Origin: Candidatus Bathyarchaeia archaeon
Lineage (GTDB): Archaea; Thermoproteota; Bathyarchaeia; 40CM-2-53-6
Length of the DNA stretch: 47,458 bases
Direction of reading: 5' to 3'
Assembly: GCA_049517415.1 (NCBI GenBank)
Contig: JBEKSC010000022.1
Span: 1 to 47,458 of the forward strand
Positions 15,340 through 46,472 of this stretch are shown here, one piece after another. The notes below the pieces were generated by a model that had not been told where the DNA came from, searched no databases, and saw nothing but the letters and a program-made list of their open reading frames with translations. The translations under genes and the position numbers were made by a program. Positions within the stretch are counted from its first letter, which is position 1, and each line of letters starts with the position of its first letter.

Positions 15340-15380
15340 CCTGTCCGATGCCCATGAGAATCAAAGGCAGAATTAAGCTT

Positions 15381-16259: not shown

Positions 16260-16302
16260 GCTTGGTCAGCTTCCAGTTCATTGTATATGTGAAAACCCAT
16301 GG

Positions 16303-16860: not shown

Positions 16861-16934
16861 CGCTTTGCCTCGCCTGGGCTTTGGCACTTCCTCTAGTCCG
16901 ATTTAATAAGTGAAATCGCAATGTCAGGGAAATC

Positions 16935-17819
16935 GTGTCAACAGCTTCAGCGGAAGCATTTCAAGCTGGCGAACGCATCGCCGAGCTTTCTGTAATCACC
17001 CTAGTCAGCATCGGGTTAGTGGAGCTCACAATCGGATTCTGGACGGGGAGCCTCGGACTCAAAGCTGATGGAGCAGACTCAATCTCTGATTCTGTGATTT
17101 CTCTCATCGTATGGCTTGGGCTGCATTATTCCAGAAGGCGGCCGGATGCGCGTTTTCATTTTGGTTACCAGAAGGTGGAAAGCCTATCTGCGCTCATTGT
17201 TTCAATAGGAATGTTGGTTCTAGCAGCCTACGTAATGTTTCATGCCTACGCAGCCTTCCTAAACCCAAGAGTGATAGCCTATCCGTATCTAGCTCTCGTA
17301 ACGCTACTCGGTTGTGGAACAATCTCAACCTACCGCGCATTTCAGATGCGGAATGTGGCGAATAGGTACGGCTTACTGTCACTTCGGACAGATGCGAATA
17401 ATTCGATCAAGGATGGAACTGCCTCATTCGTAGTCTTCGCTAGTGTTCTCGGCGCGTCCCTTGGATTTCGGCAACTCGACGCCGTGGGAGGAATGATAAT
17501 CGCCGTCTACATAGTCGCCGTAGCATACATTGCCTTCAGGGAATCCTCTCTAATCCTGTTGGACGCATGCGAAAGTCCCGAGTTGACATTTGCTTTGGCT
17601 GCAGCGCTCAAGACTGTGGAAGGAATTCGAGGAGTAACAAGCATAAGGTTGCGGCCTGCCGGCCAATTTCTAACTGGAATAATCACTGTTTTAGTCGACG
17701 GTTCCAAGAGCGTGACGGAGACTGAGCATTTGCGCAGGAAGTTACTCGAGATAGTCTCAGCGGTCATCGAGCCTGTAGGTGAGATGTCTATCGTCTTTCG
17801 GACCGATCCTCAATCCTAG
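16935..17819 (+). CDS. Cation diffusion facilitator (CDF) transporter
   Basis: ADGADSISD; HFGYQKVESL; TM domain plus C-terminal dimerisation domain. Confidence 0.9.
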   Translation: MSTASAEAFQAGERIAELSVITLVSIGLVELTIGFWTGSLGLKADGADSISDSVISLIVWLGLHYSRRRPDARFHFGYQKVESLSALIVSIGMLVLAAYVMFHAYAAFLNPRVIAYPYLALVTLLGCGTISTYRAFQMRNVANRYGLLSLRTDANNSIKDGTASFVVFASVLGASLGFRQLDAVGGMIIAVYIVAVAYIAFRESSLILLDACESPELTFALAAALKTVEGIRGVTSIRLRPAGQFLTGIITVLVDGSKSVTETEHLRRKLLEIVSAVIEPVGEMSIVFRTDPQS

Positions 17820-31108: not shown

Positions 31109-32809
31109 ATGGGGCTTCGAACTCACGAGACGAGAAGACCGGGGTTGCATCTTTCCGCGCGGCCATTGTTAACGCTCGCGTTTTGCCTTGTCGTAGCTGG
31201 GCTTATCCTACCAAATGTCGGAGCCCAGCTTTCTTACTCGGCTTCAGTTACCATAGCAGGCCTTCCGTCAACCGTTAGCACTAACCTTTACGTTGATGGG
31301 CTCTTCAACACAACAATTAACGGGGGACAGACCCTTACCTTAACGTTCTCCGCTCCAAACACCGGCCATGTAATCACAGTAGATTCTTACGTACCGAATA
31401 GTGTCTTGGCGAACGGCACGCGTTTCTATGAGCCTGACGCGTCATGGGCCTTCACGGCGGCTGGCAGCCACATTTTCACTTACACCGCGCAATACTATCT
31501 GACCGTAGAAACGTCTTACGGTACCTCGACCGGTCAAGGATGGTATGAATCCGGCACGGCGGTGCATGCGACAATAAATGACTCGAATGTTGATGAGGGT
31601 CAAGGAACACGAGAAGTCTTCTCAGGATGGTCAGGAGATGCATCCGGAAGTGGTTTGACTACGGCGCAAATATTCATGACTGAGCCGAAGACCGCCATAG
31701 CGAATTGGAAGACGCAATTCCTTTTGACAGTGGGGTCCAACCCCGCCAACGTTTCCGGTCTCTCCGGCTCTGGTTGGTATGATTCGGGGAACGAAGCGAC
31801 ATTCTCAGCAGCTGCAGTTCTACCGGCCAGTGACAATACGCGTCTTATGTTTGAAAAATGGAGCGGAGACTACTCGGGTCAATCAACGACTGGGCAGCTC
31901 CTAATGGACCGGCCCGAAACAGTCCAGGCGAATTTTCTCGCTCAATATTTGCTTACGGTTCAATACAGTCCAGTAAGCATTACCTCCGGGTATAACGCAT
32001 CTCATGCAGGCTGGTATGATCTCAACACAAACGTCCAGCTTGGCCCAGCTCCAACAACTGTCAACCTGAGCTCCGTCGAGCGCCTTCGCTTTATCGGCTG
32101 GACCGACAATAATTCAACTTCTTCAAACCCGTCCTACACAGTGGTCATGAATCAACCGCGCACAATCACGCTCTCGTACAAGACACAGTATTATGTGGAT
32201 GTGCAATCTTCGCACGGTTCGGTTTCAGGTTCGGGATGGTACGACCGCGGGACCACAGCAAATATCACTGCCACTAGTGACCCCCAAACTTGGCCCATTT
32301 CATATACTCTAACTGGTTGGCAGCTCGAACCCTCGACAGGGGCGGTCACGAAGACTGATCATTCATGGAGTCTGATTGTGACTGGACCTTACGTTGTTCA
32401 AGCTGAGTGGAGCTTTGACTATCTTCCGTTTGTCGAACTCTTTGGCGGTGGCGGAATCGCAGTCGCGGTCGTCGCGGTGGCGTTCGTTCTTGCCCGTAGA
32501 CGGGGTGTCTCCGACCGTGCGCAACCAATGCCTAGTCGTCTAACTTCAGTAAGTGCGCCCGCTTCCCCGATTGTAATGCAGGTCTGCATTACCTGTGGGA
32601 ATTCTGTTCCGAAGGGGGCATTCTGTGAAAAGTGCGGAGCTCCTATGGAAGCGCCCGCGGTATCGTCATTGGATGAAAAGGTATACGATTACATCGTGAA
32701 GCATGAAGGCGTAATCTCGTTAAGCACGGCATCAGCTGAACTCGGAATTCCTATTGAAGAACTCAAGACAATAACGGGCCGGCTAAAGAATCAGGGTCGC
32801 CTAGCCTAG
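31109..32809 (+). CDS. Type I membrane/surface protein: about 4 beta-repeats, TM, Zn-ribbon, C-terminal wHTH
   Basis: Signal peptide; repeated Y/FxLTV...GWY...GW units; TM; CITCG..FCEKCG; helical HTH-like tail. Confidence 0.8.
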   Translation: MGLRTHETRRPGLHLSARPLLTLAFCLVVAGLILPNVGAQLSYSASVTIAGLPSTVSTNLYVDGLFNTTINGGQTLTLTFSAPNTGHVITVDSYVPNSVLANGTRFYEPDASWAFTAAGSHIFTYTAQYYLTVETSYGTSTGQGWYESGTAVHATINDSNVDEGQGTREVFSGWSGDASGSGLTTAQIFMTEPKTAIANWKTQFLLTVGSNPANVSGLSGSGWYDSGNEATFSAAAVLPASDNTRLMFEKWSGDYSGQSTTGQLLMDRPETVQANFLAQYLLTVQYSPVSITSGYNASHAGWYDLNTNVQLGPAPTTVNLSSVERLRFIGWTDNNSTSSNPSYTVVMNQPRTITLSYKTQYYVDVQSSHGSVSGSGWYDRGTTANITATSDPQTWPISYTLTGWQLEPSTGAVTKTDHSWSLIVTGPYVVQAEWSFDYLPFVELFGGGGIAVAVVAVAFVLARRRGVSDRAQPMPSRLTSVSAPASPIVMQVCITCGNSVPKGAFCEKCGAPMEAPAVSSLDEKVYDYIVKHEGVISLSTASAELGIPIEELKTITGRLKNQGRLA

Positions 32810-33207
32810 AAAAGCGAGAAGGGTGAACGCGCTTGCTGCTCGCCCTCCATCAAGTATTGGCCGGATTGAGACCCCAGCTTCGGCGCCAATCCCCAGTAAC
32901 ATTCGGTGCACAGGCTTAGGGCTCCATATTGTCTGTTGCAGGATGAGCAAATTGGCCTTCCACATCTTGAGCAGATGAATGAGGATGGCAGCTCAGAATG
33001 ATAGTAGCAACTACCTTGCCTCTGCACCTGCCTCGGAGTGTAGGTTGGTGTGGACATTGGAGCTGTAGGGGTTGGCTTCATGGAAGCTGTCAGAGGTGAC
33101 TTCACATCAACTTTGACAGGAGGTAAATTGAGAAGCGACACGCCGCAGCTGAAACAGTACCTTGCCTCATCGGAGTTGGTTTTGCCACAGACCTGACACA
33201 TTGGCAT
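32806..33207 (-). CDS. Zinc-ribbon plus B-box-type zinc-finger protein
   Basis: CQVCG..N...ARYCFSCG; Pro/Thr linker; CYYH-x7-CSRCGRPICSSC-x8-CTEC. Confidence 0.8.
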   Translation of the reverse strand: MPMCQVCGKTNSDEARYCFSCGVSLLNLPPVKVDVKSPLTASMKPTPTAPMSTPTYTPRQVQRQGSCYYHSELPSSFICSRCGRPICSSCNRQYGALSLCTECYWGLAPKLGSQSGQYLMEGEQQARSPFSLF

Positions 33208-33363
33208 ATTTGAACCACACATTGAATTGGTAGCAAGCATTTCTTAACGGTTACTTAAGGGCTGATGCGTTTACCCATTCAAATTCGCCGTGAAATGTGG
33301 CAATTGATGGTTATGGCAATAGGTCTCTTGCGAAAGTGTGACACGGTTGATACAAGATTCTTC

Positions 33364-34608
33364 CTACGTCAACCTTAGAATTGATTCATGAAACTCCTCG
33401 TCTTTACCGTCAGCGAAAACTCTGAGATAGTCTCCCCGACCAGCCACCTTTCCTAGCTTTGAATGCCCATCCAACATCCTTGTTCCCTCAGATGTTTCCA
33501 AGAGTATGCGCAGTGCTTCGCCATCGATTTTGGCGTGGCGACGAAGGTTTTCCTCCAAGTTCCCCTTATAACGACTGACCGTGGAGATCATTAGGTCGCC
33601 CCGTTGGGCAGGTTCCTTGGTCGTTCCCTCTTTTCCACATACGATGCATTTCTCACCTCGCTTCAAGTCCATCGGAGTGTACCGATTATTCCTCAAATCC
33701 AAGAACAGAACTGACCTTAGTGGCTGGCCGCTACTTTCTGGCCATCTAGCATTAGATCGGTATTCTTCAATTCCAATGATCAGCTTGACAGTTTCTTGGG
33801 CAAGTATTGATGAGACCAGTGAGATTGTTGTCGAGAAGGATGGGACGGCTTCCTGCTCCAACGGGGCGTCACACGGGTTTCGCAAACCTACGATCTTCGA
33901 GTATTGGTTGGGCGGAAACATGCATACAGGGCAGGCGTCATTGGGTGGGAGGTATACGTGAATTCTGCCGTTCAACCCGGTGATTCCGCCGTCAACCAAC
34001 GGGATAGAATATTTTCTGCAAATCTGAGTTAGGAAGATTCGCGAGACGACATTGTCGAGGCCGCACACTATCACGTCTGAGTCCAAATAGAATTTCAGTG
34101 GTAATCGTTCTAGGTGGCCGCGGAAGGCGGTCGTTTGGACGAAGGGATATTTCCTGTGAATATTCTTTGCAAGAGCTTCAGCCTTGTTCTTTCCAAGGTC
34201 ATTTTTTTCGAAGAAGACCATGCGGCTAATATTAGACATTTCCACGGTGTCTCTATCTACGATGATAATTCGTCCGACCCCTAGCATAGCTAGGTTCTTG
34301 GCTACCTCGTTGCCAATGGCGCCGGCGCCCGCGAGTAGCACCGACGAATCTCTTATCCTCCTTTGGCCTTCCAGACCCCAAAGGAGCAAGTGTCGCCCCC
34401 ACAGGTAGTCAATGGTCACCGTTTCGTTGATTCTTGACAGACGTGTATGATCCGGTAGCGGCTTTCCGTGGGCTAGTAGTCTAGTGAGTTCAGGTTCGAT
34501 CCCTAGTTTCTTGCAAATTATTACTTTAAGCTCTTTAGCCGTCTTGTCGGGGTTCAGCTCCACTTCGATTTGTTTGTAGGAAGGGAGGGAAGCATTCACG
34601 CGCATCAA
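33364..34608 (-). CDS. Ubiquitin-activating E1-like enzyme (ThiF family) with N-terminal ubiquitin-like domain
   Basis: GAGAIG; DRDTVEMSNISR; Zn pairs CPVC and CIVC; candidate catalytic Cys in RNPCD; N-terminal about 65 aa with Ubl pattern (TAKELKVII...RLLAHGKPL). Confidence 0.88.
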   Translation of the reverse strand: MMRVNASLPSYKQIEVELNPDKTAKELKVIICKKLGIEPELTRLLAHGKPLPDHTRLSRINETVTIDYLWGRHLLLWGLEGQRRIRDSSVLLAGAGAIGNEVAKNLAMLGVGRIIIVDRDTVEMSNISRMVFFEKNDLGKNKAEALAKNIHRKYPFVQTTAFRGHLERLPLKFYLDSDVIVCGLDNVVSRIFLTQICRKYSIPLVDGGITGLNGRIHVYLPPNDACPVCMFPPNQYSKIVGLRNPCDAPLEQEAVPSFSTTISLVSSILAQETVKLIIGIEEYRSNARWPESSGQPLRSVLFLDLRNNRYTPMDLKRGEKCIVCGKEGTTKEPAQRGDLMISTVSRYKGNLEENLRRHAKIDGEALRILLETSEGTRMLDGHSKLGKVAGRGDYLRVFADGKDEEFHESILRLT

Positions 34609-35201
34609 GAAGACGCTCGATGTGCCCGTCCAGGAAGGTCGAACCTAACGATATCCCCGGCCTCTGAAGCCGCGTCCCTCATTTGTGGGACCGGGACTAC
34701 GTCGAATCGCACAATGTCGTCGGGTTCCTTACTTTTCGGTTTGGCTTGCGTCATTTTAGGGAATCCATAGGAGCGGCAAACGTTTGCCGCTTTGAGGGCG
34801 CGCGGATTGTCGAACACGCTCTGAGGGTTCGGGTCCGTTAGCAGGTAATGTAACGCATTTACGACCGAAATGAGTTTCAATCTGGGATCCCATTTTTCCC
34901 CGAGTATTGAAACGCACACAGCATTTGGGATTTTCGGTACTATGTTGGGGTGTGAAATTTCCGTGAGCCAAGTCGCCACGGGTGGTTTCAACGGGTATTC
35001 TGGGGGAATGTCAAATCTGAACCGGTGCCAGTTGGTGTAATCAGTGAAGGGCCAGACTCCCTTCTCCGATAACTTCATGACCTCCCCTTTTTCGCACCGA
35101 ATGAGGCCTTCGAATTGGGTTGGAGGGTCGTTCATTGCGGTGACCGTGGGGAATTGGTGGTTGAGCAGGTTCTTCTCCTTGAGCAGCAGTGGGACATCCA
35201 T
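34605..35201 (-). CDS. Ubiquitin-conjugating enzyme E2 (UBC fold)
   Basis: PPEYPLKPP; HPNI; catalytic VCVSIL; W-D-P; LLTDPNP. Confidence 0.92.
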   Translation of the reverse strand: MDVPLLLKEKNLLNHQFPTVTAMNDPPTQFEGLIRCEKGEVMKLSEKGVWPFTDYTNWHRFRFDIPPEYPLKPPVATWLTEISHPNIVPKIPNAVCVSILGEKWDPRLKLISVVNALHYLLTDPNPQSVFDNPRALKAANVCRSYGFPKMTQAKPKSKEPDDIVRFDVVPVPQMRDAASEAGDIVRFDLPGRAHRASS

Positions 35202-35212
35202 TGCTAGTCAGG

Positions 35213-35479
35213 CTACCCGCCGATGATATTGTATGGCATGAGTGCAAGCTGAGCATTCTCCGGAATGCCTAACCTTGCAACAGTCGTGCTCTCGTCCAGT
35301 ATTGCGCCACCATACATGAGAGCCACAGTACTTGGGTCGACGTTGAACGACTGGCAGACCTGTTGCTTTATCTCCGCAACCGTGTGGTCTGGAATAACAT
35401 CGATTTCCGCAAGGCCTGTCTGGGGGCCAATAGGCGCTTGAACAAACAGTTTCATTTGTGACGTTTCACCTCCACTCAT
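35213..35479 (-). CDS. Ubiquitin-like modifier ending in di-glycine (alternative start 35455)
   Basis: TVAEIKQQV; LMYGGAILDESTTVARLGI; ends NIIGG-stop. Confidence 0.92.
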   Translation of the reverse strand: MSGGETSQMKLFVQAPIGPQTGLAEIDVIPDHTVAEIKQQVCQSFNVDPSTVALMYGGAILDESTTVARLGIPENAQLALMPYNIIGG

Positions 35480-35499
35480 GCTGACCTTTCATTTTCACA

Positions 35500-35516
35500 G
35501 ATGTGCTTAAACTATC
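35500..35516 (-). promoter_or_regulatory. Putative TATA box (TTTAAG, 35506-35511) for the Ub-E2-E1 transcript
   Basis: Archaeal TATA-like hexamer about 27 nt upstream of the Ub ATG. Confidence 0.45.
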
Positions 35517-35519
35517 TTG

Positions 35520-36788
35520 CTATGAGCTGGAGGGTATGGAAAAGTGCGGCACCAGCCCCCTGATTTCCGAGATATGTCGCTCGCTAAAAGGCCCCGATAT
35601 TTGAACGGGCAACTCTAGGCCTCCGGCTAACACAGCTGGGTTCGTTGACATGTTGCCTTTCGTTCTGGGAAGGATAAGCCGAATTGAGACAACCTCCATC
35701 CAGAACAAGATTGAACCAATAGACAAACGTTCGGCAAGTCCTTGGTACGGAGCGGAAATCGAGATTAGTACAAACACAGCAAGGGCGGTCGAGATCGGCA
35801 GCATTGCGATGCTGAAATGGCCGTAATGCTTCCAGTGTGGGTCGCGGCCGAAATTACGCCAAAAGAATGCCATTGCTGCCAGCGAGAGGAAGGTGACGAC
35901 TTCGGCAAGCACAACATGGATGGTGCCTGTTATCGTAACCGGAAACCCTTGGGGATAGTCCTGTGGAAACAGAAACAGGGCTAGGCCTAAGGCGCCCGTG
36001 CTCAAGAGCGAGACTGGGCCCCAAATCTGTCCGTCCTCGATTCCGTAGTAGAGGCCGACCGCCAAGAGGATTACGCAGACATTGTAGAGCCCGAAGAGGA
36101 GCAGCATTACGTCTCTGACTTGAATGGGTGAACCTGCCGAAGTGAGAGTGCTAACTGTATCGCGGTATTGTGAGTACTCGGGCCATAGAAATCCGCCAAG
36201 CAAGAGGGCTGAAAGATAAATGACGGGACCTACGGCTCCGAAAGCGCCGAGTGCTCGGGGTATCATCGATGGGGTTACTCTTTCTACTTCCGGCGTTGGA
36301 ACGTTCATGCCGCGAGCAATGTTTTCTTGGCGAGTCGCTGTATAAACTCCGGAAAAGACACTGATTCTCTCAGCGGATAAGCGTACGGCTCCACCTGTCC
36401 GATGATCCACGCGAAAGAACCCGACTTCCCCTGTCGATGTGTCCACGACCATACCCACAACCAGTTTCGAGAATTGCTGAAGGGTTCTTTGAGTTTCGAT
36501 GTCTGTTGGCGAGAAAAAAAGGCCGCCCACGGTATGTGAATGGTACCAACCCACAATGTTACCTTTTATTAGCCCAGTCACAAGCCCGTCCGCGATTTTC
36601 GCTAGCGCGTTCGAAGAGAGGCTTACCCTATGCGGCCCGGCTGAGGATTCACCTGTAATTGCGTTTTCTATTATCAGCGTATTGCCTTCAAGTCTTCCTA
36701 ACAGTAGGCCGACGATCTCATTTTTGTTGGCACGCGCAGCCTGCACTATCTTGTCGTTAACAGGTTTCCCTATGCTCACATTCGACAA
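35520..36788 (-). CDS. JAMM/MPN+ metalloprotease fused to a multi-TM DUF998-like membrane domain
   Basis: NEIVGLLLG...WYHSH-x7-SPTD (complete JAMM motif), then about 5 TMs with YSQYRDTVSTL, GTIH and GLAERL (DUF998-like). Confidence 0.85.
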   Translation of the reverse strand: MSNVSIGKPVNDKIVQAARANKNEIVGLLLGRLEGNTLIIENAITGESSAGPHRVSLSSNALAKIADGLVTGLIKGNIVGWYHSHTVGGLFFSPTDIETQRTLQQFSKLVVGMVVDTSTGEVGFFRVDHRTGGAVRLSAERISVFSGVYTATRQENIARGMNVPTPEVERVTPSMIPRALGAFGAVGPVIYLSALLLGGFLWPEYSQYRDTVSTLTSAGSPIQVRDVMLLLFGLYNVCVILLAVGLYYGIEDGQIWGPVSLLSTGALGLALFLFPQDYPQGFPVTITGTIHVVLAEVVTFLSLAAMAFFWRNFGRDPHWKHYGHFSIAMLPISTALAVFVLISISAPYQGLAERLSIGSILFWMEVVSIRLILPRTKGNMSTNPAVLAGGLELPVQISGPFSERHISEIRGLVPHFSIPSSS

Positions 36789-36886
36789 TGTCTCATCTGC
36801 TTTTCGCTATGTGTTCCTATTCGTCCTAAACTCTCTTTTTTCCAATATCATCAAACCTTCAATGGTATGTCTCGCGTGCACAATCG

Positions 36887-38293
36887 TCAGGTCGAGTCAA
36901 GTCCGAATTCTTTATGCAACGCTAGAACGGCCTTAGGTCCGTCCTTCTCAGTCACGACGAACGAGATGTTTAGCTCCGATGAACCTTGAGCAATCATCCG
37001 TACATTAACACCCGCCTTAGCAACAGCGCTAAACACTCGTGCGGCGACTCCCGGGGTCCCTTTCATTTCGGCCCCTACCGCTGCGATAATGCAGACATCG
37101 TCCTCCGTTGACATGTCCCTCACGACCTCCACCCCTAGTACGCTAAGTTCCAAAGCGCTTTTTGCTCTCTCCAAGTGATCTCTTGCAGTCACAAACGAGA
37201 TGCCTGCTTCCGAAGAACTCTGGGATATCATCAGAATGTTCACACCTGCGTCCCCCAGAACCCTAAAGACCTTAGCGGCAACTCCGGGCAACCCAGACAT
37301 GCCTGAACCGGTGACATTTATCAGCGCAAGCTTCTTGATCATTGTGATCGCCTTCACGATCTCTTTACTTCTTTCTGAGGTGTCGCCAGCGACAAGTGTT
37401 CCTTCAGAGTTGCGATTGAAAGCATTTCTGATGCGGACAGGGATTTGGCGGTCGGCCACGGGTTCTAGGGCTCGAGGGTGGATTACTTTCGTGCCGAAGT
37501 ATGCCATCTCACTTGCTTCCGCGTACGACACGTGTGGCAGAACTTTCGCACCGGCCTCTATGGTGGGGTCTGCTGTCATTAACCCGTCAACATCCTTCCA
37601 GAGGACAACTTCGTCGACCGACAGGGCGGCACCAATTATTGTCGCTGTGTAGTCCGATCCGCCTCTGCCCAGGGTAGTCGTGACTCCACGAGGGGTAGAG
37701 GCTCCGAAGCCCGCAACTATTGGCAGCGTCCGAGTCTCCAGCAAGCGCTCTAGTTTGTTCTTCACTTGACGGATTGTGATATCCATTAGTGGGGTTGAGT
37801 CTCCGTAGACCTCATTTGTTATTATGCCTGTCTCGCCACCTGTTAACCACACAGCATTAATGCCTGCATAGTTCGCTGCGCCACAGAAGATTGGAGCCGA
37901 CAATCGTTCTCCGAAGGAGAGAACAAAATCCTTTGAACGAGGTGTAAGTTCCTCCAAACGAGCAATGCTTCTTAGGATACCGCCAAGTTCCTTCGAAATC
38001 CCCTCAAGCTCACGAAGAACCATCTCAAGGGCAGACGAACCTTGAATGCACTCTGTCGCTATTCTGCGATGATGTTCCAGCTGCCTTTCTACAAATGAAT
38101 TTACCGAGCCAATGTCGCCTTCCATCGCTTTCGTGGTGATGCTCAGGAGTTCCGAGGTGACCTCAGGGAAGGCCGATACCACGACTACGAGTTGGCATCC
38201 GCTCTTCAATGATTCGTTTACGATTTCTACGGCATTTCTAATGCCTTTTGCACCAGCAAGTGAGGATCCCCCAAATTTCATTACGTATCGCAA
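36887..38293 (-). CDS. lysC: Aspartate kinase with two ACT domains
   Basis: VMKFGGSS; TTLGRGGSDYTA; DVDGLMTADP; ACT repeats. Confidence 0.94.
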   Translation of the reverse strand: MRYVMKFGGSSLAGAKGIRNAVEIVNESLKSGCQLVVVVSAFPEVTSELLSITTKAMEGDIGSVNSFVERQLEHHRRIATECIQGSSALEMVLRELEGISKELGGILRSIARLEELTPRSKDFVLSFGERLSAPIFCGAANYAGINAVWLTGGETGIITNEVYGDSTPLMDITIRQVKNKLERLLETRTLPIVAGFGASTPRGVTTTLGRGGSDYTATIIGAALSVDEVVLWKDVDGLMTADPTIEAGAKVLPHVSYAEASEMAYFGTKVIHPRALEPVADRQIPVRIRNAFNRNSEGTLVAGDTSERSKEIVKAITMIKKLALINVTGSGMSGLPGVAAKVFRVLGDAGVNILMISQSSSEAGISFVTARDHLERAKSALELSVLGVEVVRDMSTEDDVCIIAAVGAEMKGTPGVAARVFSAVAKAGVNVRMIAQGSSELNISFVVTEKDGPKAVLALHKEFGLDST

Positions 38294-38305
38294 GGTTGGA
38301 TCTTC

Positions 38306-39334
38306 TCACATCGCAAGTCTTTTCTTTATGTCGATAAGGTCGCGCAGAACCGAGCTTGCCGTCTCTCTACCGCCTGCCCCACGGCCACAAAGCGTGATCT
38401 CGCCGGCTAATTCGGTTTTGAACAAAACAGCGTTCAATATGCCGTCCACGCACAGAGGATTACTAAGAGAGATTGCTCTCGGCCGAACTGACAACTTGTA
38501 GTCCTTCGTCGAACCAACTAATTTTATCGCCTTGTTCTGTCTCTTGGATTCTTCTATCTCTTGGAATGTGACGGATGATATGCCCTCGATCATCACATCG
38601 CGGATGGAGGCACTTCCCCCCATCACCCAGTTGCTGATAATGACCAGTTTTATTGCCGTGTCGATTCCATCAATGTCAAATCTGGGATCGGCCTCGGCAT
38701 ATCCGAAGTCACGTGCCTCTTTGAGTGCGTGGCTCATGCTGACTCCTTCCTTGAACATTTGTGTGAGGATGTAGTTTGTCGTGCCGTTCAAAACTCCTTC
38801 AACAGATAGTACTCGATCTCCGGCTAAGCATTCCTTTGCGAACTTCAGGAGTTGTGTGCCCCCTCCAACTGTGCCACTGAACCTGAAGTCCACACCTTGA
38901 TAGCGAGCAAGTTCAAGTAGGGCTGGCATTGCCACTGCCAGCGGCCCCTTGTTCGTGGTGATAACGTTCAGGTCATTCTTTAGCGCCGACTCTATATGTG
39001 TAAGTCCCGGTTCTCCATCAGTCACGTTGGTGGGAGTCAGTTCTAAGAGGACATCAGCTTCTACCGTCTTGATGACATCGAGGGCGCCCACTCCTTGATG
39101 GCCGAGCGTTCTGTGTTGCGCGACGGATTCGTGTGAATTGCGTTTCGAAAGGGCCTCCGATATGTTCACACCTTTCTCGTCGATAATTGCGCCTCCTCGG
39201 TCCACGATGGCGACAACTTGTGGTGCAATGCCGTACAGCCTTCTCAACGATTCCGAACGCTCTTGAACTATTTCCGCAAACGATCTGCCAACTGTCCCGA
39301 AACCTATGATTATGATGCGCAAATCTGGTTCCAT
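38306..39334 (-). CDS. hom: Homoserine dehydrogenase
   Basis: GFGTVG; TNKGP; GVLNGTTNYIL; GYAEADP; GAGGRETAS. Confidence 0.95.
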   Translation of the reverse strand: MEPDLRIIIIGFGTVGRSFAEIVQERSESLRRLYGIAPQVVAIVDRGGAIIDEKGVNISEALSKRNSHESVAQHRTLGHQGVGALDVIKTVEADVLLELTPTNVTDGEPGLTHIESALKNDLNVITTNKGPLAVAMPALLELARYQGVDFRFSGTVGGGTQLLKFAKECLAGDRVLSVEGVLNGTTNYILTQMFKEGVSMSHALKEARDFGYAEADPRFDIDGIDTAIKLVIISNWVMGGSASIRDVMIEGISSVTFQEIEESKRQNKAIKLVGSTKDYKLSVRPRAISLSNPLCVDGILNAVLFKTELAGEITLCGRGAGGRETASSVLRDLIDIKKRLAM

Positions 39335-39780
39335 GCTCTTATGTTTTCGGTCATCTTGAGTCGGGGATTAGATACGTATCAGTTGTTGGTCTCTTATCTT
39401 TCACGGTACCGAATGATCAATTTTGTTTGGTCGCGATGACTGTGCAAACTTCTTTACCCTTCAATTCAAGGTACTTCAAAACTTCCGCCGTTGACGTCCA
39501 CCGTGTATAGTCGTTATCCGCCACGAGGATTTTCTGCGTATCCAAAATGAACTCGCTCGGTCGCTTGAGCCAGCGTGAGCACGGACTAACCAACGAGGGC
39601 ACATTAGAAACGTCTTTCATGAACTCACACAAAAGAAACGAGTGGCGCTGGGACTATTGCATCATCGATTAGAGACGTATTGAAAGAAAAGCCGCACGGC
39701 AAGGTTTAGCTTGCTGGCGGGCTAGAAGTACCAATAGAGTAAAATTATAGTTTGAAGCGTTTCGCCTAAATCTGATTAGT

Positions 39781-42700
39781 TTGCACGCGAAAGCATTGGC
39801 ATTGCTAGTCCTCGCCATATTCTTCATCGGATTAATTGGGTCTTTTCAGGTCGTTGGATCGGAAAGGACGCTCGGTAAACTGGACCCGACTCTGATAATG
39901 CGCATTGAGGGCGTTCAGCAACCGGGTTTACGAGTTCAGGGAAGTTCGGTTTTCGTCTTCGTGCGCCTTAACCCCGGCTATGCCGTAGGGGATGTTGCAA
40001 GGTACTTGTCGGCTAAGTTCACGGTTGGACCTTCCCATTCGCCATTCGCTGTTTATGGAACTGCTAGTGTTAATTCGCTCTTGCCTCTTGCTTCGTTGCC
40101 CGCCGTCTCCTACATTTTTCAGGACGTGAAGCTGGGCTCCGAGCAAATGAATGACTCAGAGGTTTACAGTCAACATTTGGCGACGGACATGTTCAAGGTT
40201 AGACAGGTTATTGGCGCTGATCGAGTGAACCAGCTTGGGATTTCAGGAAATGGGGTTACAATTGCTATCGTGGACACGGGAACTGATTTCACCATACCTG
40301 ATCTGATGGATGCGGTCGCGAGAAACGATGTGGGCCAGGCGATCTCTTTCGATGCTGACGGGCAGAGCTTTGCGATCACAAACTTAACCGTAACTCGTTT
40401 CGGTAACGTCCTCACCACCGCTGGGAAAGTTGTTAGCGTTTGGAACGCTTCTAGCTACCTCAACACCAACCCCAGTCAGCCGCAGATTGATAAGGTACGG
40501 TTGCTCTACAATTACGTAGCTCCCACCGTTTTCTCAAAGTCAGGAAATTATCACTTCGGAATCCTGAGCGAGGAAATTTCAGATGTAGTTTCAGGGGGAA
40601 CCGTTAACCTCGACTTCCCTGTAGTAGTTGTTGATGCCCATCAGTCGGGGGTATATGACACCGTCGTAGTGGATATGTCCACAGCATACTACAATTTCCT
40701 ACTAAACTACCGGGACAGTCTGAATGCAAAAGCCTCGCAACCGCTTGGCCTTAACCTCACCTGGCCTTCTCCCCAACCCGTTTGGAACGACCATGGTTTC
40801 GCCGACGAAAAACCACACACGGCAACACCAGGAAACGACCTGATATTCTTCGATCCAAACAACACTGGTGTTCCAGTGTTCAGCGCAGGCTTACTCTCCT
40901 ACGGAATTGATCTTGGCGGATACACCGGAAAGAATTTCGCTTTGCTTCCCCCAATCGATCCCAACGGGAATTTCATCAATGTCTTTTTCGATTACGAAAG
41001 CCATGGAACGAGCACTGCATCGAATGCAGCTTCACGTGGAATCCTGAAGCGAGATATCTACCAAAACGGGACTTTACTCACGTTGCCTGGCGTTGCACCA
41101 GCAGCAAAGGTGATGGGAGTGAAAGCTCTCTGGATTGGGGACATAACCTTCGCATGGTACTACGCGGCAGGATTCGACTGGGATCCGAATGATTTCAGTT
41201 TCAAATACACAGGAATGCATCGGGCTGATATCATAAGCAATAGTTGGGGAGATTCAGATCCAATTCAAGACCTAGGTTCAACTTTCGGTCTCGACTCAAT
41301 GAGTCAATTAGCCGACGCATTAACCATCCCGCATTATCTCAACCCTGCTTACCCCGGCGTTGTAATGCTCTTCGCGGCAGGCAACGGTGGATTCGGCTAC
41401 GGTACGGTGGCATCGCCCGGAGCCGCAACGCTCCCAATAACAGTAGGTGCGTCAACGAATTACGCCTACCGAGCTCAGCCTGCCTTGCGGGTAGCACATG
41501 AGATCGAGGGCAGCTATGACGAGGTTGTTCCATGGAGCGCACGCGGACCAACATCAATCGGTGAGCCAAAGCCGGATGTAGTGGATGTGGGGGCGTTCGG
41601 ATTTGCTGATCAATCGACATTTACCGGCTACGGTAACGGGACCAACGCTTACACAACATTTGGCGGAACGAGTATGGCCACACCTGTCACCGCTGGAGCC
41701 GTAGCGTTGGTTATAGAAGAATATCGAAACACTCACGGAGGCTTGACACCCGCCCCGGACCTTGTAAAAGCCATTCTGGCCAGTGGTGCCACAGATCTCT
41801 CATACGATCAATTCACACAGGGGTCGGGAAGGGTCAACGTCTGGGATGCTGTCGCTGCAGCGGCAGAGGGTCACGACAGCCGTCTCCCAACCAGATTCTA
41901 CCTATACTCGCCAGCTACTTGGGATTCCGTTAGGAAACTGCTCTCTGAGTCGTGGGCGATGAATCTACAGACTCCAATTCCAACCACGAGTAGCGTGTCA
42001 GCTAACTGGTACGCTGGAGTAGCACAGCCGGGCACTTCAGAGATCGCAACTTTCGACATACAGAACGCGAACAAACCGTCAGCGCAAGCCTATGCATACA
42101 CACTCATATCCTCAACTACATCGCGGTATACGGCGAATTCTAACGTTACGTGGATCCAGGTACCGATATACACGATTCCAACCAACGCAGACCTCATGAA
42201 GGTCACAGTCGTATACCATTTCTCAGATTTCGCCAATGCAACAAGTTGGAGCTACAGTAATCTTCTCCTAGCGCAAATGTACGACACGAATTTCGATCCT
42301 GCAGGGCATATTAGCAGAATCACTAACGGCGCACCGTACGGCACAACCTCTGAGTTAATTGTTGGGCAGCCACTAACAAAGTTCCGCGGAGTCCCGGAGG
42401 TCAGAATCGTCAAACAGGGATCAGCCTCGAAAATCGCGTTCGAATTGGTCTTCCGATACTACACGCGATCCTCGTGGAACTGGATAACCCAGCTTTCAAC
42501 CTCGCATAATTCTCTCACAGCAACACTAACCGTTCCACTGGGTACAGGCCCCGGGGTCTACGGTGGGCTAATCGCCGTATCCGACAACGGAACTGAAACC
42601 GTTATCCCAGTGTCCGTTGTGATCCCAATTGTCGTCGGAGGAACGTATGGGTTATCTTCTCCGCCAGAGAAGACGCCGTACGTTAATTTCGCAGTCTATG

Positions 42701-43059
42701 GGGCTTTCGATTGGTCATGGCGTTATGAGGCCGGGGACTGGCGAACCTTCGCAATTATCGTTCCGCCCGGCGTGAACGAGCTCAAGGTTCATTTATCCTG
42801 GTCTGACCCTCAAACTCTTATTCAAGAACATTTGACGGGGCCCGCGGGGTTTCTGGTAGCCTCCTCTGAATACCCTTCGAGCCTCTACGTTGGGAGCGGA
42901 AAGTTCCACTGGTACACGAACACTGGCGGCCCGGCAGAGGAAATCGCAGCTTCAGGCATACGGCCAGGATTATACTTTCTTGTGTTACACAACGTGCTTT
43001 TCGGCGGCTCATTTGCGAGTTATCCGGAGAACTACACCTTGAATGTCGAGATGGTTTAA
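39781..43059 (+). CDS. Secreted S8 subtilase (pyrolysin-like, large insert in the catalytic domain)
   Basis: Signal peptide; IVDTG (Asp), SHGT (His), AAGN, GTSMATP (Ser); C-terminal beta domains. Confidence 0.92.
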   Translation: MHAKALALLVLAIFFIGLIGSFQVVGSERTLGKLDPTLIMRIEGVQQPGLRVQGSSVFVFVRLNPGYAVGDVARYLSAKFTVGPSHSPFAVYGTASVNSLLPLASLPAVSYIFQDVKLGSEQMNDSEVYSQHLATDMFKVRQVIGADRVNQLGISGNGVTIAIVDTGTDFTIPDLMDAVARNDVGQAISFDADGQSFAITNLTVTRFGNVLTTAGKVVSVWNASSYLNTNPSQPQIDKVRLLYNYVAPTVFSKSGNYHFGILSEEISDVVSGGTVNLDFPVVVVDAHQSGVYDTVVVDMSTAYYNFLLNYRDSLNAKASQPLGLNLTWPSPQPVWNDHGFADEKPHTATPGNDLIFFDPNNTGVPVFSAGLLSYGIDLGGYTGKNFALLPPIDPNGNFINVFFDYESHGTSTASNAASRGILKRDIYQNGTLLTLPGVAPAAKVMGVKALWIGDITFAWYYAAGFDWDPNDFSFKYTGMHRADIISNSWGDSDPIQDLGSTFGLDSMSQLADALTIPHYLNPAYPGVVMLFAAGNGGFGYGTVASPGAATLPITVGASTNYAYRAQPALRVAHEIEGSYDEVVPWSARGPTSIGEPKPDVVDVGAFGFADQSTFTGYGNGTNAYTTFGGTSMATPVTAGAVALVIEEYRNTHGGLTPAPDLVKAILASGATDLSYDQFTQGSGRVNVWDAVAAAAEGHDSRLPTRFYLYSPATWDSVRKLLSESWAMNLQTPIPTTSSVSANWYAGVAQPGTSEIATFDIQNANKPSAQAYAYTLISSTTSRYTANSNVTWIQVPIYTIPTNADLMKVTVVYHFSDFANATSWSYSNLLLAQMYDTNFDPAGHISRITNGAPYGTTSELIVGQPLTKFRGVPEVRIVKQGSASKIAFELVFRYYTRSSWNWITQLSTSHNSLTATLTVPLGTGPGVYGGLIAVSDNGTETVIPVSVVIPIVVGGTYGLSSPPEKTPYVNFAVYGAFDWSWRYEAGDWRTFAIIVPPGVNELKVHLSWSDPQTLIQEHLTGPAGFLVASSEYPSSLYVGSGKFHWYTNTGGPAEEIAASGIRPGLYFLVLHNVLFGGSFASYPENYTLNVEMV

Positions 43060-45154
43060 GGTGAGACAGAAGACTCAAGTTCTTTTCATCGCGTTAATCA
43101 TTATTTTGATCCTCGTAGGAGAAGCGGTAGTCTACCTCCCATACCGCTCAACAACACGCAGCGTAATCATCCAATCCTATCCATCGACCACCGCATTAGT
43201 CCAGGCCCTTACGAACGACGAAGTGGATATGGCACCTATCGAAAACCCCTCACCAGAAACGCTATTGCAGCTAAAGAACAACTCCAACCTGAACGTCGTG
43301 CCAATAGGCAACTTCGGATTTACATACATCGGTTTGAACCTACGAAACCCTCCGCTCAACAACTCAGTCTTCCGACAGGCCATGCTGTACGGGTTCGACC
43401 GGGAGCGCGTACTGAATGATGTGCTTGTTGGTTACGGAGAAACTCTAACCCCAGGCCTCTTCTCATCTGCCTACGCGACTCTGGGGTGGCGGAACGAGTT
43501 AATTGACTCGTACCTATACAACCCAGGTAAAGCCTCTCAACTCCTGGATAGCATCGGATTCGTTCAATCGTCCAGTGGGGTGAGAATGAATCCGTTCACA
43601 GGCCAACGGCTACGCACCATGTTTATTTTCAGCAAATTGAGCGACCCGCAAGCAGTTGCTGCTGCAAACCTATTCGCCCAGGATATGCGATCGATAGGCC
43701 TACCAATAATCAGTTTCCCCGGAACTGACTTCGACTTCAACTCGCAAGTGAAAGTAGCATATTCTTTTGACTTATATATCGATACTGAATCTGCGGGGGC
43801 CTCACCCACCTGGCTCCACGATCTTTTCGCCGGAATAAACGACATATCTCCCGCACCGTACTCGACGAATCTGGTTGGATACCACAACTCAACTTTTGAC
43901 GAATGCTCAAAGCAGTTAATGACATCATCCGATCCTGCCTCTGCCAAAATAGCCGCCTTAAGGTGTCAGGAAGAACTCAGCTTAGATGTTCCAGCCATCC
44001 CGGTTTACTCTAAGCGCCTGCTCATCGTGACGCAGAGGAGTTTTCCGCAGATACCTCCAATCACGGGGAGCATACAGGATAGTATTGCCGCGACAATCAC
44101 GAACATGACGGGGGTAGGTCTCGTCAGGATTGGTGAGGTGTCAGGTTTGACTGATCTAAACCCGGCAACGGTTCTAGCACCCGCAGACTCGCTGACACTG
44201 AGGCTCATAACTGAACCGCTGCTAACGCATGGTGGAGACGGTTCGCCACAACCTGGATTGGTCGATCAGTGGCAAATGAGTGATAACTCTACGAATCTTA
44301 CAATTGGTCTCAGCGACGGACTGGAATTTCAAGACGGCAGCTCCATAACAGCGCATGACTTGGCTGCAACTCTCGATTGGATGATCAAAAATATGATCCC
44401 ATCTACGCCACTCTACTCAACCCTGAATGAAATCAAGAGTATTAGTGAAGTGGACGGCCGAACAATCAACATATCCTTGCGTGATTCCAATCGCTTTGAA
44501 GTAGACGCAATTGCGAACGCATTTGCCCTACCCGCTAACCGATTACCCATTACGAACGACCCTCTCGCATTGATGTTGACGGGAGCGCTAGAATCTTCGG
44601 GCGCGTTTACGTTGGCAAAGTTCGTACAAGGGTCAGGGGTTGAATTACGATCTGATCAACCTGGTAATCGCGAGGTCTTTTACGTCGTTCAAGGGCAGGA
44701 AGCCTTTGGATCGCGAATTGGCGGAAGCCAAGCTAGGATTCTTTCTCAAGCTCTAATCTACGAAGGCGAACCTATAGATAACGCCACATTCACCGTACAA
44801 ATCTACGATTCGAATGGAGCCCCCGAGGCGACGATGCATGGATCATATTTCGGGTTTGGAATCTACGGAGCAATTTTGAACCTCAATAATCAACCACTTC
44901 CTATGGGAGAACACAAAGTTACGACACAACTGTACGCGCAGCTTCCGTCAGGCGCTGTTATTCAGTTCGACGAGCAAAGCCTGAATGTCCAGCCTCCGCA
45001 ACTTCTGTTACACATCACAGCATACGTAGTAGCGCTTGTCGCGATTGGAGCTGTGATATACAACTCATCCCTCAGAAAAGCAAGGCCTCCAACGAGGAGG
45101 AGGACCACGCGGCGCCGTAGAACACGCGCTAGGAAGGTGAGAAGAAGGAAGTAG
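43043..45154 (+). CDS. Family-5 (oligopeptide) ABC substrate-binding protein, membrane-anchored
   Basis: FRQAMLYGFDRE; YNPGKASQLLD; PGLVDQW..FQDGSSITAHD; C-terminal TM and Arg-rich tail. Confidence 0.82.
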   Translation: MSRWFKVRQKTQVLFIALIIILILVGEAVVYLPYRSTTRSVIIQSYPSTTALVQALTNDEVDMAPIENPSPETLLQLKNNSNLNVVPIGNFGFTYIGLNLRNPPLNNSVFRQAMLYGFDRERVLNDVLVGYGETLTPGLFSSAYATLGWRNELIDSYLYNPGKASQLLDSIGFVQSSSGVRMNPFTGQRLRTMFIFSKLSDPQAVAAANLFAQDMRSIGLPIISFPGTDFDFNSQVKVAYSFDLYIDTESAGASPTWLHDLFAGINDISPAPYSTNLVGYHNSTFDECSKQLMTSSDPASAKIAALRCQEELSLDVPAIPVYSKRLLIVTQRSFPQIPPITGSIQDSIAATITNMTGVGLVRIGEVSGLTDLNPATVLAPADSLTLRLITEPLLTHGGDGSPQPGLVDQWQMSDNSTNLTIGLSDGLEFQDGSSITAHDLAATLDWMIKNMIPSTPLYSTLNEIKSISEVDGRTINISLRDSNRFEVDAIANAFALPANRLPITNDPLALMLTGALESSGAFTLAKFVQGSGVELRSDQPGNREVFYVVQGQEAFGSRIGGSQARILSQALIYEGEPIDNATFTVQIYDSNGAPEATMHGSYFGFGIYGAILNLNNQPLPMGEHKVTTQLYAQLPSGAVIQFDEQSLNVQPPQLLLHITAYVVALVAIGAVIYNSSLRKARPPTRRRTTRRRRTRARKVRRRK

Positions 45155-45656
45155 TTCTCAAGGTAATGTCATGGGCCGCGATGAAGCCAACGTTCAGTTC
45201 TAAAATGCACATTGACTTCATTTGGTATGATGACCGGGCAGTCATAGGTTGGGCATGGTTTTACGTCGGGTTCAGTCCGTACCGCTTGTCTAGGTGAATT
45301 GAACCAAATTATGCGGTAACAGTCTCAGCAAACACTATAGAAAAGTGAAATCGAAAAGTCAGAGAGTGCAGCGAAAGAGTGGCAGGAATCTGTAGGGCCC
45401 ACAGCGTTCTTCTTTGCAAAAGCATAAGGCAGTCAGGTTTTTCTCAGGAGTCTCTATTTATCGAATAGAGGCTAATCCTTTGCTTTCGAGAAGGGACATA
45501 CTCCTTGGACAGATAATACATCGTTCTGGCCGCGTCGTGGACTTTCTATTAGACTGAAAAGCATAGAGAAGAAAAAGCCTAGCCTATGCTCACATAGGCC
45601 AAGGCCTACGCCCAGAAATCGGAAGGAAACAAAAAAGGGGAATCTTCCTTTTGGCC

Positions 45657-46472
45657 CTAGCGTCCGAGCATGCCGAGTATTCCGCCCAGCACGCCCAAAA
45701 CGAATCCGGCCACAAACCCTCCGCCGATCAACAGGCTCAGGACCGCCAACGGAAACACTACGATGCTTCCAATTGTACCGTACCCTAGCAGCATCAGTAT
45801 CGATCCGATTACCAGTATGAGCCCGATAATCGCGCCTATCGCAAACGTTAGGCTCGGCGGGCCAACAGCTGGCAACCAGAAGAAGATGCCGGTCCATAAG
45901 CTGTAGAAACTAGGTGAGAGCAAAGCTGCTGCGTTAAGGATTACGAGGATACCTGCAAGCATTGCTAGTATGAATCCCCATAGCGCTCTCGGCGGGGACG
46001 GTTGGTAGTATGGTGGCATCGGCCCCATGAAAGCCTGAGGTGGTCCCATCTGCATAGGTGGGGGTCCCATTTGCATTTGCATAGGTGGTTGTTGCATTTG
46101 CATAGGTGGTTGTTGCATTTGCATAGGTGGTTGTTGCATTTGCGGGGCTGCTACCATTGGTACAACGCCTTGGTAACACTGCGGGCAGAGTACTAGGTCC
46201 ATGTAGGCCTTGGAGTCGTCGCGGCAAATTGATCTTCCACATCGGTTACAGACGTAGACGGCGGGTAGGTTAGGGTGATAGTAGCATTGGCCGGGTGCCG
46301 GAACCCTGATTGGGTTGCCCGGGCTGACGGGAGTCACAACGCGGACTGAAGGGACTGGTTTGAGTGCTGGCCCTATTGGCCCCACTGACCCACCGACTGA
46401 GGATCCACAACTTGAACAGAATGCTGCGTCGTCGCGGTTATTGTAGCCGCATGATGGGCATTTCTTGACCAT
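45657..46472 (-). CDS. Zinc-ribbon + B-box + Q/P/M low-complexity linker + membrane domain protein
   Basis: CPSCG..N...AFCSSCG; CYYH-x7-CNRCGRSICRDD-x8-CPQC; (MQQPPMQ)n; 3-4 TMs; SD GGAGG upstream. Confidence 0.85.
   Translation of the reverse strand: MVKKCPSCGYNNRDDAAFCSSCGSSVGGSVGPIGPALKPVPSVRVVTPVSPGNPIRVPAPGQCYYHPNLPAVYVCNRCGRSICRDDSKAYMDLVLCPQCYQGVVPMVAAPQMQQPPMQMQQPPMQMQQPPMQMQMGPPPMQMGPPQAFMGPMPPYYQPSPPRALWGFILAMLAGILVILNAAALLSPSFYSLWTGIFFWLPAVGPPSLTFAIGAIIGLILVIGSILMLLGYGTIGSIVVFPLAVLSLLIGGGFVAGFVLGVLGGILGMLGR
46071..46143. repeat. 21-bp tandem repeat, about 3.5 copies (coding, MQQPPMQ)
   Basis: Unit TTGCATTTGCATAGGTGGTTG at 46071, 46092 and 46113, partial at 46134. Confidence 0.95.

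Follow-up and report, generated by a model that had tools for sequence, protein, structure and literature searches.

A gene of the stretch analysed here, called the window below (47,458 nucleotides of contig JBEKSC010000022.1, assembly GCA_049517415.1 of a Candidatus Bathyarchaeia archaeon), raises the question of why an enzyme expected to remove ubiquitin should be built into a membrane. The gene (35520..36788, minus strand) encodes a JAMM isopeptidase domain followed by a multi-helix DUF998 domain, next to genes for ubiquitin and for E2- and E1-like enzymes. Eukaryote-like ubiquitin systems of archaea have been studied as sets of soluble enzymes, with Caldiarchaeum as the model. We consider it likely that the fusion protein is an integral-membrane, ubiquitin-specific JAMM isopeptidase, the counterpart in Bathyarchaeia of CsRpn11, and that DUF998 serves in it as a replacement anchor, the putative deubiquitinase activity, the candidate substrates and the presumed role of DUF998 being argued here from sequences and models. 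What the analysis establishes is the domain architecture and how well it is conserved, the catalytic residues, the fold, the charge bias behind the topology, the gene order and which way the anchor was exchanged.

The JAMM-DUF998 fusion protein

The gene is composed of the following parts.

35520..36788, minus strand: JAMM-DUF998 fusion gene, an uninterrupted open reading frame of 422 aa with a TTG start
36339..36788, minus strand: Rpn11-like JAMM/MPN+ catalytic domain, residues 1-150 (Pfam JAB, PDB match, model)
36501..36542, minus strand: metal-binding and catalytic motif H83-S-H85-x7-S93-x2-D96, read from the sequence, with E24 at 36717-36719
36258..36338, minus strand: flexible linker, residues 151-177, containing the swap breakpoint (predicted local distance difference test, pLDDT, of the model; ratio of nonsynonymous to synonymous substitution rates, dN/dS; limits of homology)
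35667..36257, minus strand: DUF998 six-helix membrane domain, residues 178-374 (Pfam PF06197, hydropathy, model)
35523..35666, minus strand: C-terminal tail, residues 375-422, predicted to be disordered (model pLDDT 36-57)

An original prediction, made by a model from the bare sequence, had described an uninterrupted frame of 422 aa with a full E...HSH-x7-S-x2-D motif and about five membrane helices. Frame and motif have been borne out: E24, H83, H85, S93 and D96 are all present and are invariant in the 20 fusion proteins that were aligned, and the TTG start, with nearly the same first residues, recurs in the DNA of four genomic relatives of the gene. The number of membrane segments has to be corrected to six, as found both by hydropathy and in an AlphaFold model. 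In Pfam, residues 3-106 match JAB (PF01398; E 1.3e-10, 41.5 bits against a cut-off of 22.5), accompanied by a Prok-JAB match (30.7 bits against a cut-off of 25), and residues 186-368 match DUF998 (PF06197, Frag1-like clan; E 8.4e-18, 65.1 bits against a cut-off of 30) over profile positions 2-182 of 184, i.e. 181 positions. The model was computed from an alignment of 103 sequences and has a mean pLDDT of 87, an earlier one from 20 close homologues (pLDDT 39.9) having been discarded; it gives the MPN domain (residues 1-150) a pLDDT of 82-97 and the helices of the DUF998 part (176-201, 222-249, 256-273, 286-315, 317-342 and 349-372) a pLDDT of 91-98, and leaves linker residues 152-163 below 50, i.e. 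disordered. The C-terminal tail is found, in full or in part, only in the closest relatives (P0002-P0005 and L004) besides the window protein itself.

Among solved structures, the closest sequence match of the JAMM domain (phmmer against the PDB) is CsRpn11 (6fjv, E 7.8e-17), followed by CSN5 (2.4e-10), Rpn11 (4.1e-7) and AMSH (1.1e-4). The modelled fold agrees: Foldseek superimposes the JAMM domain on 6fnn_A with a TM score of 0.83 and a root-mean-square deviation of 2.1 A over 150 columns, and the VIA Z of the model is 20.1 to Rpn11 (4o8x_B) and 18.5 to CsRpn11 (6fju_B). Purifying selection maintains both domains, as judged by pairwise dN/dS among five genomic copies, which is 0.09-0.23 in JAMM and 0.16-0.47 in DUF998, against 0.33-0.75 in the linker. 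A promoter and terminator scan of 32700-37000 stayed at chance (2 found against 3.3 expected, and 5 against 4.3), archaeal promoters lying outside the coverage of that scan.

The fusion recurs well beyond the window. A protein search of 5.8 billion clusters returned 53 matches, consisting of 20 JAB + DUF998 proteins (375-423 aa, 46-100% identity), 30 JAB-only proteins of 496-524 aa and three DUF998-only proteins or fragments; one of the fusions, P0001, is 100% identical to the window protein and is located on 17 contigs. The check in related genomes that the original prediction had asked for shows fusion genes in five of 23 genomes from the window's genus; complete six-helix versions occur in 13 of 80 metagenome loci. 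Among species representatives, the fusion turned up in four more genomes, each labelled as a Bathyarchaeia or Bathyarchaeota metagenome-assembled genome (MAG), and among 1.84 billion cluster representatives only two, P0006 and P0022, combine full-length JAMM and DUF998. Two apparent further two-domain matches, P0083 and P0137, were rejected, being a tandem DUF998 and a duplicated CSN5-like sequence; P0083, a metagenome protein of 434 aa, consists of two DUF998 domains in tandem, showing that this family also duplicates internally. The stretch of the window is found in near-identical form in 20 sequencing runs of 19 studies (peat, wetland and soil); no RNA run is listed as containing it, which speaks neither for nor against expression. 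Nine of these runs were flagged as possible sources, and the contigs were checked in four unflagged, independent runs, where they span 35400-36900 free of joints and indels. Read support had been called for across the junction (36230-36350); three of the runs cross it with a piece of 345 nt and the fourth with a contig of 9877 nt. In the alignment of the 20 fusion proteins, both halves and the reading frame are kept down to 54% identity.

The topology of the protein is indicated by the positive-inside rule. Counted over the loops, Lys and Arg residues are more numerous on the JAMM side of the membrane than on the other side in all 20 aligned fusions (5 against 1 in the window protein), which would place JAMM, loops 2 and 4 and the C terminus in the cytoplasm, in line with the cytoplasmic JAMM anticipated by the original prediction. 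The DUF998 domain retains Y205, S213, D277, H291, E353, R354 and W363, each conserved in at least 76% of 74 standalone DUF998 proteins, and differs at less conserved positions of the family (Q207 for H, T214 for E); the retained residues are situated on the outer side of the membrane, either in loops or where helices 4 and 6 end. Comparison of the DUF998 part with solved structures gave only generic helical bundles, among them Ste2 (Z 11.4) and a designed six-helix barrel (Z 10.4), all at or below 11.4, where a Z of about 13 is the level advised for helical bundles; no solved structure of the Frag1/DRAM/Sfk1 type was among the matches, and the comparison speaks neither for nor against a known fold. 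According to the literature, DUF998 is structurally akin to Frag1/DRAM/Sfk1, being a six-helix bundle (bioRxiv 10.1101/2023.03.09.531927), the DUF998 protein DrmA of Enterococcus faecalis modulates the levels of a cationic membrane glycolipid (PMC13370385), and another member of the family was recovered in an esterase screen (PMC6302743).

Replacement of the membrane anchor

Membrane anchoring is not confined to the DUF998 forms. We compared the window with 28 related loci from ten families of the order, and in all 28 the JAMM gene of the operon is predicted to encode one or more membrane helices C-terminal to the JAMM domain: five carry the six-helix DUF998, 21 a single helix, and two are incomplete (one with masked bases, one of 274 aa). 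The 21 one-helix proteins have their helix at about 130-300 and measure 456-613 aa by the open reading frame call, one start among them being over-called and one gene frameshifted. Likewise, the 30 JAB-only proteins of the cluster search each possess one strong hydrophobic segment at about 170-210, with a second, weaker segment in four of the 30 at the threshold used. Beyond the helix, the one-helix forms have an outer part of about 300 aa that is beta-rich and gives only weak immunoglobulin (Ig)-like matches (NEW3, I-set and Big_7), with a weak PKD match in a 761-aa form. Relatives in which the two halves are always separate genes, which would have spoken against the fusion, are thus not what is seen, since those lacking DUF998 have JAMM fused to another membrane module. 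Across the order, anchoring in the membrane is, judging by these predicted helices, the rule for the operon JAMM.

The direction of the exchange is given by a maximum-likelihood tree of the JAMM domain (58 rows: 15 DUF998 forms, 41 one-helix forms and two soluble paralogues), in which all 15 DUF998 forms make up one clade (support 99/95) nested within one-helix forms from their own genus. The window protein is homologous to the one-helix forms as far as the linker motif PTxEV (residues about 165-170), and to standalone DUF998 proteins from about residues 173-178 onward. From the nested clade and these limits of homology it follows that the C-terminal part was replaced once, with a breakpoint at residues about 170-177 (nucleotides about 36258-36281). 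A single helix with an Ig-like outer domain is, on this phylogenetic evidence, the predicted ancestral anchor, and DUF998 its lineage-specific C-terminal replacement.

A donor for the incoming domain was sought in 41 related genomes, where close copies of DUF998 were found solely in the five fusion genomes and the two other matches were 27-28% identical. Its closest standalone relatives are the metagenome proteins P0038, P0058 and P0064 (47-49% identical), which group with the fused DUF998 domains at full support in the DUF998 tree. At the level of the class, Rpn11-like JAMM proteins at E <=1e-25 are present in 22 of 151 Bathyarchaeia genomes, nearly all of them in the window's order, and the same search of 151 genomes yielded no further frame of the length of the DUF998 fusion. 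The genome of the window also contains a second, different DUF998 fusion of 465 aa (L002, positions 670-2067 of G000 contig C31), with an N-terminal zinc ribbon, a proline-rich stretch, extra membrane helices and then DUF998.

The fusion P0022 suggests that DUF998-type modules may have been recruited repeatedly. Its JAMM domain is sister to the window's subgroup (100/100) inside the fusion clade of the JAMM tree, and its DUF998 domain, about 26% identical to that of the window and 33-37% to other standalone proteins, falls in another part of the DUF998 tree. An approximately unbiased (AU) test, run on 13 fused domains and 35 of the 74 standalone DUF998 proteins and chosen after the tree had been seen, rejects monophyly of the fused DUF998 domains (p 3.6e-5). 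P0022 sits on a long branch and consists of a single protein cluster on 2 contigs, and in a metagenome scan with P0022 as the query none of the 80 loci carried its type of C-terminus, its own contig not being recovered.

The ubiquitin gene cluster

The fusion gene is the first of a cluster on the minus strand, followed by ubiquitin, an E2-like enzyme, an E1-like enzyme and a zinc-ribbon + B-box-like protein. The other members are listed below, together with a further zinc-finger gene (ZnF1) located at a distance.

35213..35455, minus strand: ubiquitin, 80 aa, ending IIGG-stop (Pfam ubiquitin; the listed frame reaches 35479)
34605..35201, minus strand: E2-like protein (UQ_con; Pfam E 8.3e-17)
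33364..34608, minus strand: E1-like protein (ThiF, 2.2e-50) with an N-terminal ubiquitin-like domain (ubiquitin, 3e-8, residues 11-60)
32806..33240, minus strand: ZnF2, soluble zinc-ribbon + B-box-like protein, candidate E3 or adaptor (matches below Pfam cut-offs)
45657..46472, minus strand: ZnF1, membrane-anchored zinc-ribbon + B-box-like protein (Pfam; 98% identical to ZnF1 of G014)

Clustered here are the elements that characterize a Caldiarchaeum-type operon, namely ubiquitin with a C-terminal GG, E2-like, E1-like, a zinc-finger candidate E3 and JAMM. The gene order ZnF1, JAMM, ubiquitin, E2, E1, and then ZnF2 where the flank is long enough, is kept in 28 of 28 related loci. In the relatives, ZnF1 is a zinc-ribbon + B-box-like protein of 250-271 aa with a multi-helix membrane tail, and a match to it lies directly upstream of JAMM in all 27 loci that have an upstream flank. 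In the window, ZnF1 is about 8.9 kb away from JAMM, whereas the G014 copy adjoins its own JAMM (85% identical to that of the window); since ZnF1 stands beside JAMM in 27 of 27 relatives, an insertion or rearrangement has taken place inside the cluster of this genome. The intervening segment (36887-45656) encodes aspartate kinase, homoserine dehydrogenase, an S8 subtilase of 1092 aa and a solute-binding protein of 703 aa.

The ubiquitin frame as listed comprises 88 codons. All ubiquitins of the relatives align from the second ATG, giving an alignment of 80 aa with a mean column identity of 91%, and this ATG is preceded by a purine-rich stretch resembling a ribosome-binding site. Because the relative L011 has two stops within the first 8 codons, translation probably starts at the second ATG (35455), yielding 80 aa and leaving the first 8 codons untranslated. 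This product would contain only two lysines. As the original prediction had noted, ubiquitin is encoded in mature form, the GG being followed directly by the stop so that C-terminal processing is not required, and the same holds for 22 of the 28 related loci.

Several further features of the neighbourhood may be recorded. Convergent to the cluster (31109-32809, plus strand) lies a gene for a protein of 566 aa, in which InlB B-repeats form the outer domains, accompanied by a single membrane helix, a cytoplasmic zinc ribbon and a winged-helix-like tail. The C-terminal part of this protein is kept beside ZnF2 in seven of seven loci of other families with enough flank; this neighbour may be a membrane-tethered regulator or substrate of the ubiquitin system. 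Weak matches to the ubiquitin query within the E1 gene of four relatives suggest that the N-terminal ubiquitin-like domain of E1 is conserved there. Two contigs with the archaeal operon (L052 and L056) come from MAGs titled as the bacteria Candidatus Acidiferrales and Candidatus Methylomirabilota and are probably mis-binned.

Function, alternatives and known systems

In the mechanism that we propose, the catalytic domain would reside in the cytoplasm, tied by a flexible linker about 25 residues long to a six-helix DUF998 domain with both its N and C termini facing the cytoplasm. The enzyme would strip ubiquitin from conjugates produced by the E1, E2 and zinc-finger proteins encoded alongside it; because the ubiquitin of the operon is made already mature, the expected substrate is a conjugate, and because one zinc-finger protein is membrane-anchored and the eraser is tethered, a cycle of tagging and untagging would take place at the membrane. 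In one sub-lineage of one genus, DUF998 would have replaced the ancestral anchor by recombination just before the first helix. DUF998 probably keeps a function of its own besides anchoring, since it is under purifying selection and has kept the outward-facing polar residues typical of its family. The original idea of a deconjugase fixed at the membrane appears to fit this evidence; what it missed is the main point, that anchoring is general across the order and DUF998 a replacement anchor.

Some observations weigh against this proposal. In one metagenome contig (L073) the JAMM and DUF998 halves are in different frames. The inter-domain geometry of the model is uninformative (pTM, the predicted template modelling score, 0.63; linker pLDDT below 50). 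The conserved DUF998 site is on the membrane face opposite JAMM, so that chemical cooperation between the two domains is not required and the fusion might be accounted for by anchoring alone. Matches of the zinc-finger proteins to B-box and RING/Prok-RING models stay below the Pfam cut-offs, which makes the ligase step itself a putative one. Finally, 1-6 residues follow the GG of ubiquitin in six of the 28 related loci (SC in L013, QN in L015, RPWITP in L018, KPN in L023, N in L029 and R in L030); lineages with such extensions need C-terminal trimming, and precursor trimming may still belong to the tasks of the family elsewhere.

How far these points favour other explanations has to be weighed case by case. 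The split frame of L073 is what would be expected if the fusion were an artefact, whether of chimeric assembly or of read-through between two genes, but the frame is shifted by the loss of one base from a T run in the linker, a loss not seen in the near-identical loci L069 and L080 and most likely an error. With the fusion present in five genomes, in 13 complete metagenome genes and in joint-free contigs of four independent runs, and with halves and frame conserved down to 54% identity, an artefact is scarcely conceivable and, within the reach of sequence data, may be regarded as already refuted. Another frameshifted JAMM gene was seen in L028 (G016 contig C2), where residues 1-54 and those from 55 onward are in different frames; the frameshifted genes of L028 and L073 would be either errors or decaying copies. 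The extensions after GG in six of 28 ubiquitin genes could also mean that JAMM is not a deconjugase of this ubiquitin, acting instead on another ubiquitin-like protein, as a processing peptidase only, or as a non-catalytic ubiquitin-binding scaffold, with ubiquitin served in principle by a second JAMM of the same genome, a soluble protein of 143 aa (G000 contig C6). We judge this improbable, given the invariance of all catalytic residues and the low dN/dS of JAMM (0.09-0.23), the synteny with ubiquitin, E2 and E1 in 28 of 28 loci, and the ubiquitin-specific CsRpn11 as the closest solved relative; moreover, the soluble paralogue is only 33-36% identical to the window JAMM and has no adjoining genes for ubiquitin-like proteins within the 4 kb examined. 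A role like that of AMSH, in which ubiquitin would be stripped from cargo at a membrane-remodelling site of the endosomal sorting complexes required for transport (ESCRT) or Cdv type, might be suggested by the membrane-proximal JAMM and by a Cdv-like gene pair in the same genome (L144/L145, G000 contig C29, about 15054-17287), encoding a MIT-domain protein (32.2 bits, above the cut-off) beside a weak, sub-threshold Snf7-like match (22.7 bits). Such a role is nevertheless very improbable: Pfam gave no match to MIT or any other ESCRT-binding domain in the fusion protein, the contig C29 hit is the only MIT match of the genome search and is unlinked to the ubiquitin cluster, and AMSH is the weakest match among the JAMM subfamilies. 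The resemblance to AMSH drawn in the original prediction therefore stands as a functional analogy and not as kinship.

A different alternative starts from the outward face of the module. In receptor-like coupling, this module (the Ig-like domain in most relatives, DUF998 in the window) would sense something at the envelope or outer leaflet, for example a lipid or a surface ligand, and thereby control the cytoplasmic JAMM, so that ubiquitin removal within the cell would follow external conditions. It would account for the extracytoplasmic module beyond the membrane helix in 28 of 28 operon JAMMs, for the outward-facing polar cluster of DUF998 and for the purifying selection on this domain, and it agrees with the modulation of a membrane glycolipid by the bacterial DUF998 protein DrmA (PMC13370385), and with the repeated recruitment of DUF998-type modules suggested by P0022, whose DUF998 belongs to a different branch (AU p 3.6e-5). 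No signalling mechanism is evident, however, the linker being disordered and fast-evolving; signals would hardly be passed on alike by a six-helix bundle and by an Ig-like stalk on one helix; and P0022 is one cluster on 2 contigs with a long branch and a post hoc AU test. Such coupling is possible, if rather unlikely, and because the conserved DUF998 site faces away from JAMM, an anchor with its own function is favoured over direct chemical cooperation between the two domains. A broader version, in which the ubiquitin eraser would be a transmembrane receptor-type enzyme with an exchangeable input module, the lipid-linked DUF998 having been recruited twice and the state of the membrane lipids or envelope being coupled to ubiquitin removal, is put forward as a tentative idea with the chances well against it; if true, it would mean that control of membrane homeostasis by ubiquitin has a precedent in prokaryotes.

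The reading of the fusion as a membrane-anchored ubiquitin isopeptidase has several implications. In abundant archaea of soil and peat, the ubiquitin eraser is predicted to be membrane-built in all of the loci examined, and the candidate ligase usually too; the system would thus provide specific ground on which to test whether ubiquitin signalling at membranes predates eukaryotes. The new element is that the anchor was exchanged for DUF998, a conserved six-helix domain for which kinship to the eukaryotic Frag1/DRAM/Sfk1 proteins is reported. The forms with the Ig-like stalk and with DUF998 make up a natural variant pair for asking what the outer module does, and the fusion constitutes a first genomic link of the poorly understood DUF998 family to protein modification. 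Public annotation records such proteins as "DUF998 domain-containing protein" or "proteasome lid subunit RPN8/RPN11".

The protein may be compared with other membrane-associated JAMM enzymes. Membrane-anchored JAB proteins were reportedly noticed by Burroughs, Iyer and Aravind in 2011, in Mol Biosyst, within bacterial operons of ubiquitin-like protein, E1, E2 and RING genes; these are said to be bacterial proteins with anchors other than DUF998, and we know of no DUF998 fusion from that work. AMSH is peripheral and is recruited to endosomes through MIT and ESCRT-III contacts. AMSH and AMSH-LP share with the window protein a JAMM isopeptidase near a membrane, whereas the latter is integral, without a MIT domain, and matches AMSH only weakly (E 1.1e-4). 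With DrmA and its family, the fusion shares the six-helix bundle, the Pfam family PF06197 and the family-conserved residues; the known DUF998 proteins differ in being standalone proteins of about 200-240 aa, none of them tied to ubiquitin in the portions of the literature examined. The sister form of other Bathyarchaeia (490-540 aa) has an orthologous JAMM (45-62% identity) in the same operon slot and agrees with the window protein in the linker motif PTxEV and in where a membrane helix is placed; it differs in having a single helix and a beta-rich outer domain in place of DUF998.

The archaeal ubiquitin operon itself is already known, from Nunoura 2011 (PMC3082918) and Hennell James 2017 (PMC5654768). 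A literature search, mostly of titles and abstracts, found no description of a JAMM-DUF998 fusion or of a membrane-anchored Rpn11-like protein in Bathyarchaeia, nor, in the same titles and abstracts, of the one-helix + Ig-like form. The closest solved relative of the JAMM domain is CsRpn11 of Candidatus Caldiarchaeum subterraneum (PDB 6FJU, 6FJV, 6FNN and 6FNO), an enzyme which, according to PMC6043591, cleaves the CsUb precursor as well as conjugates and ignores SAMPs and human di-ubiquitin. The words "membrane" and "transmembrane" have 0 occurrences each in that paper. Both enzymes belong to the same JAMM subfamily, have the same catalytic motif and are encoded with ubiquitin, E2-like, E1-like and zinc-finger genes. 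In clear distinction, CsUb is described there as needing C-terminal trimming, whereas the ubiquitin of the window ends in GG-stop, and the window protein, unlike CsRpn11, carries the six-helix DUF998 domain.

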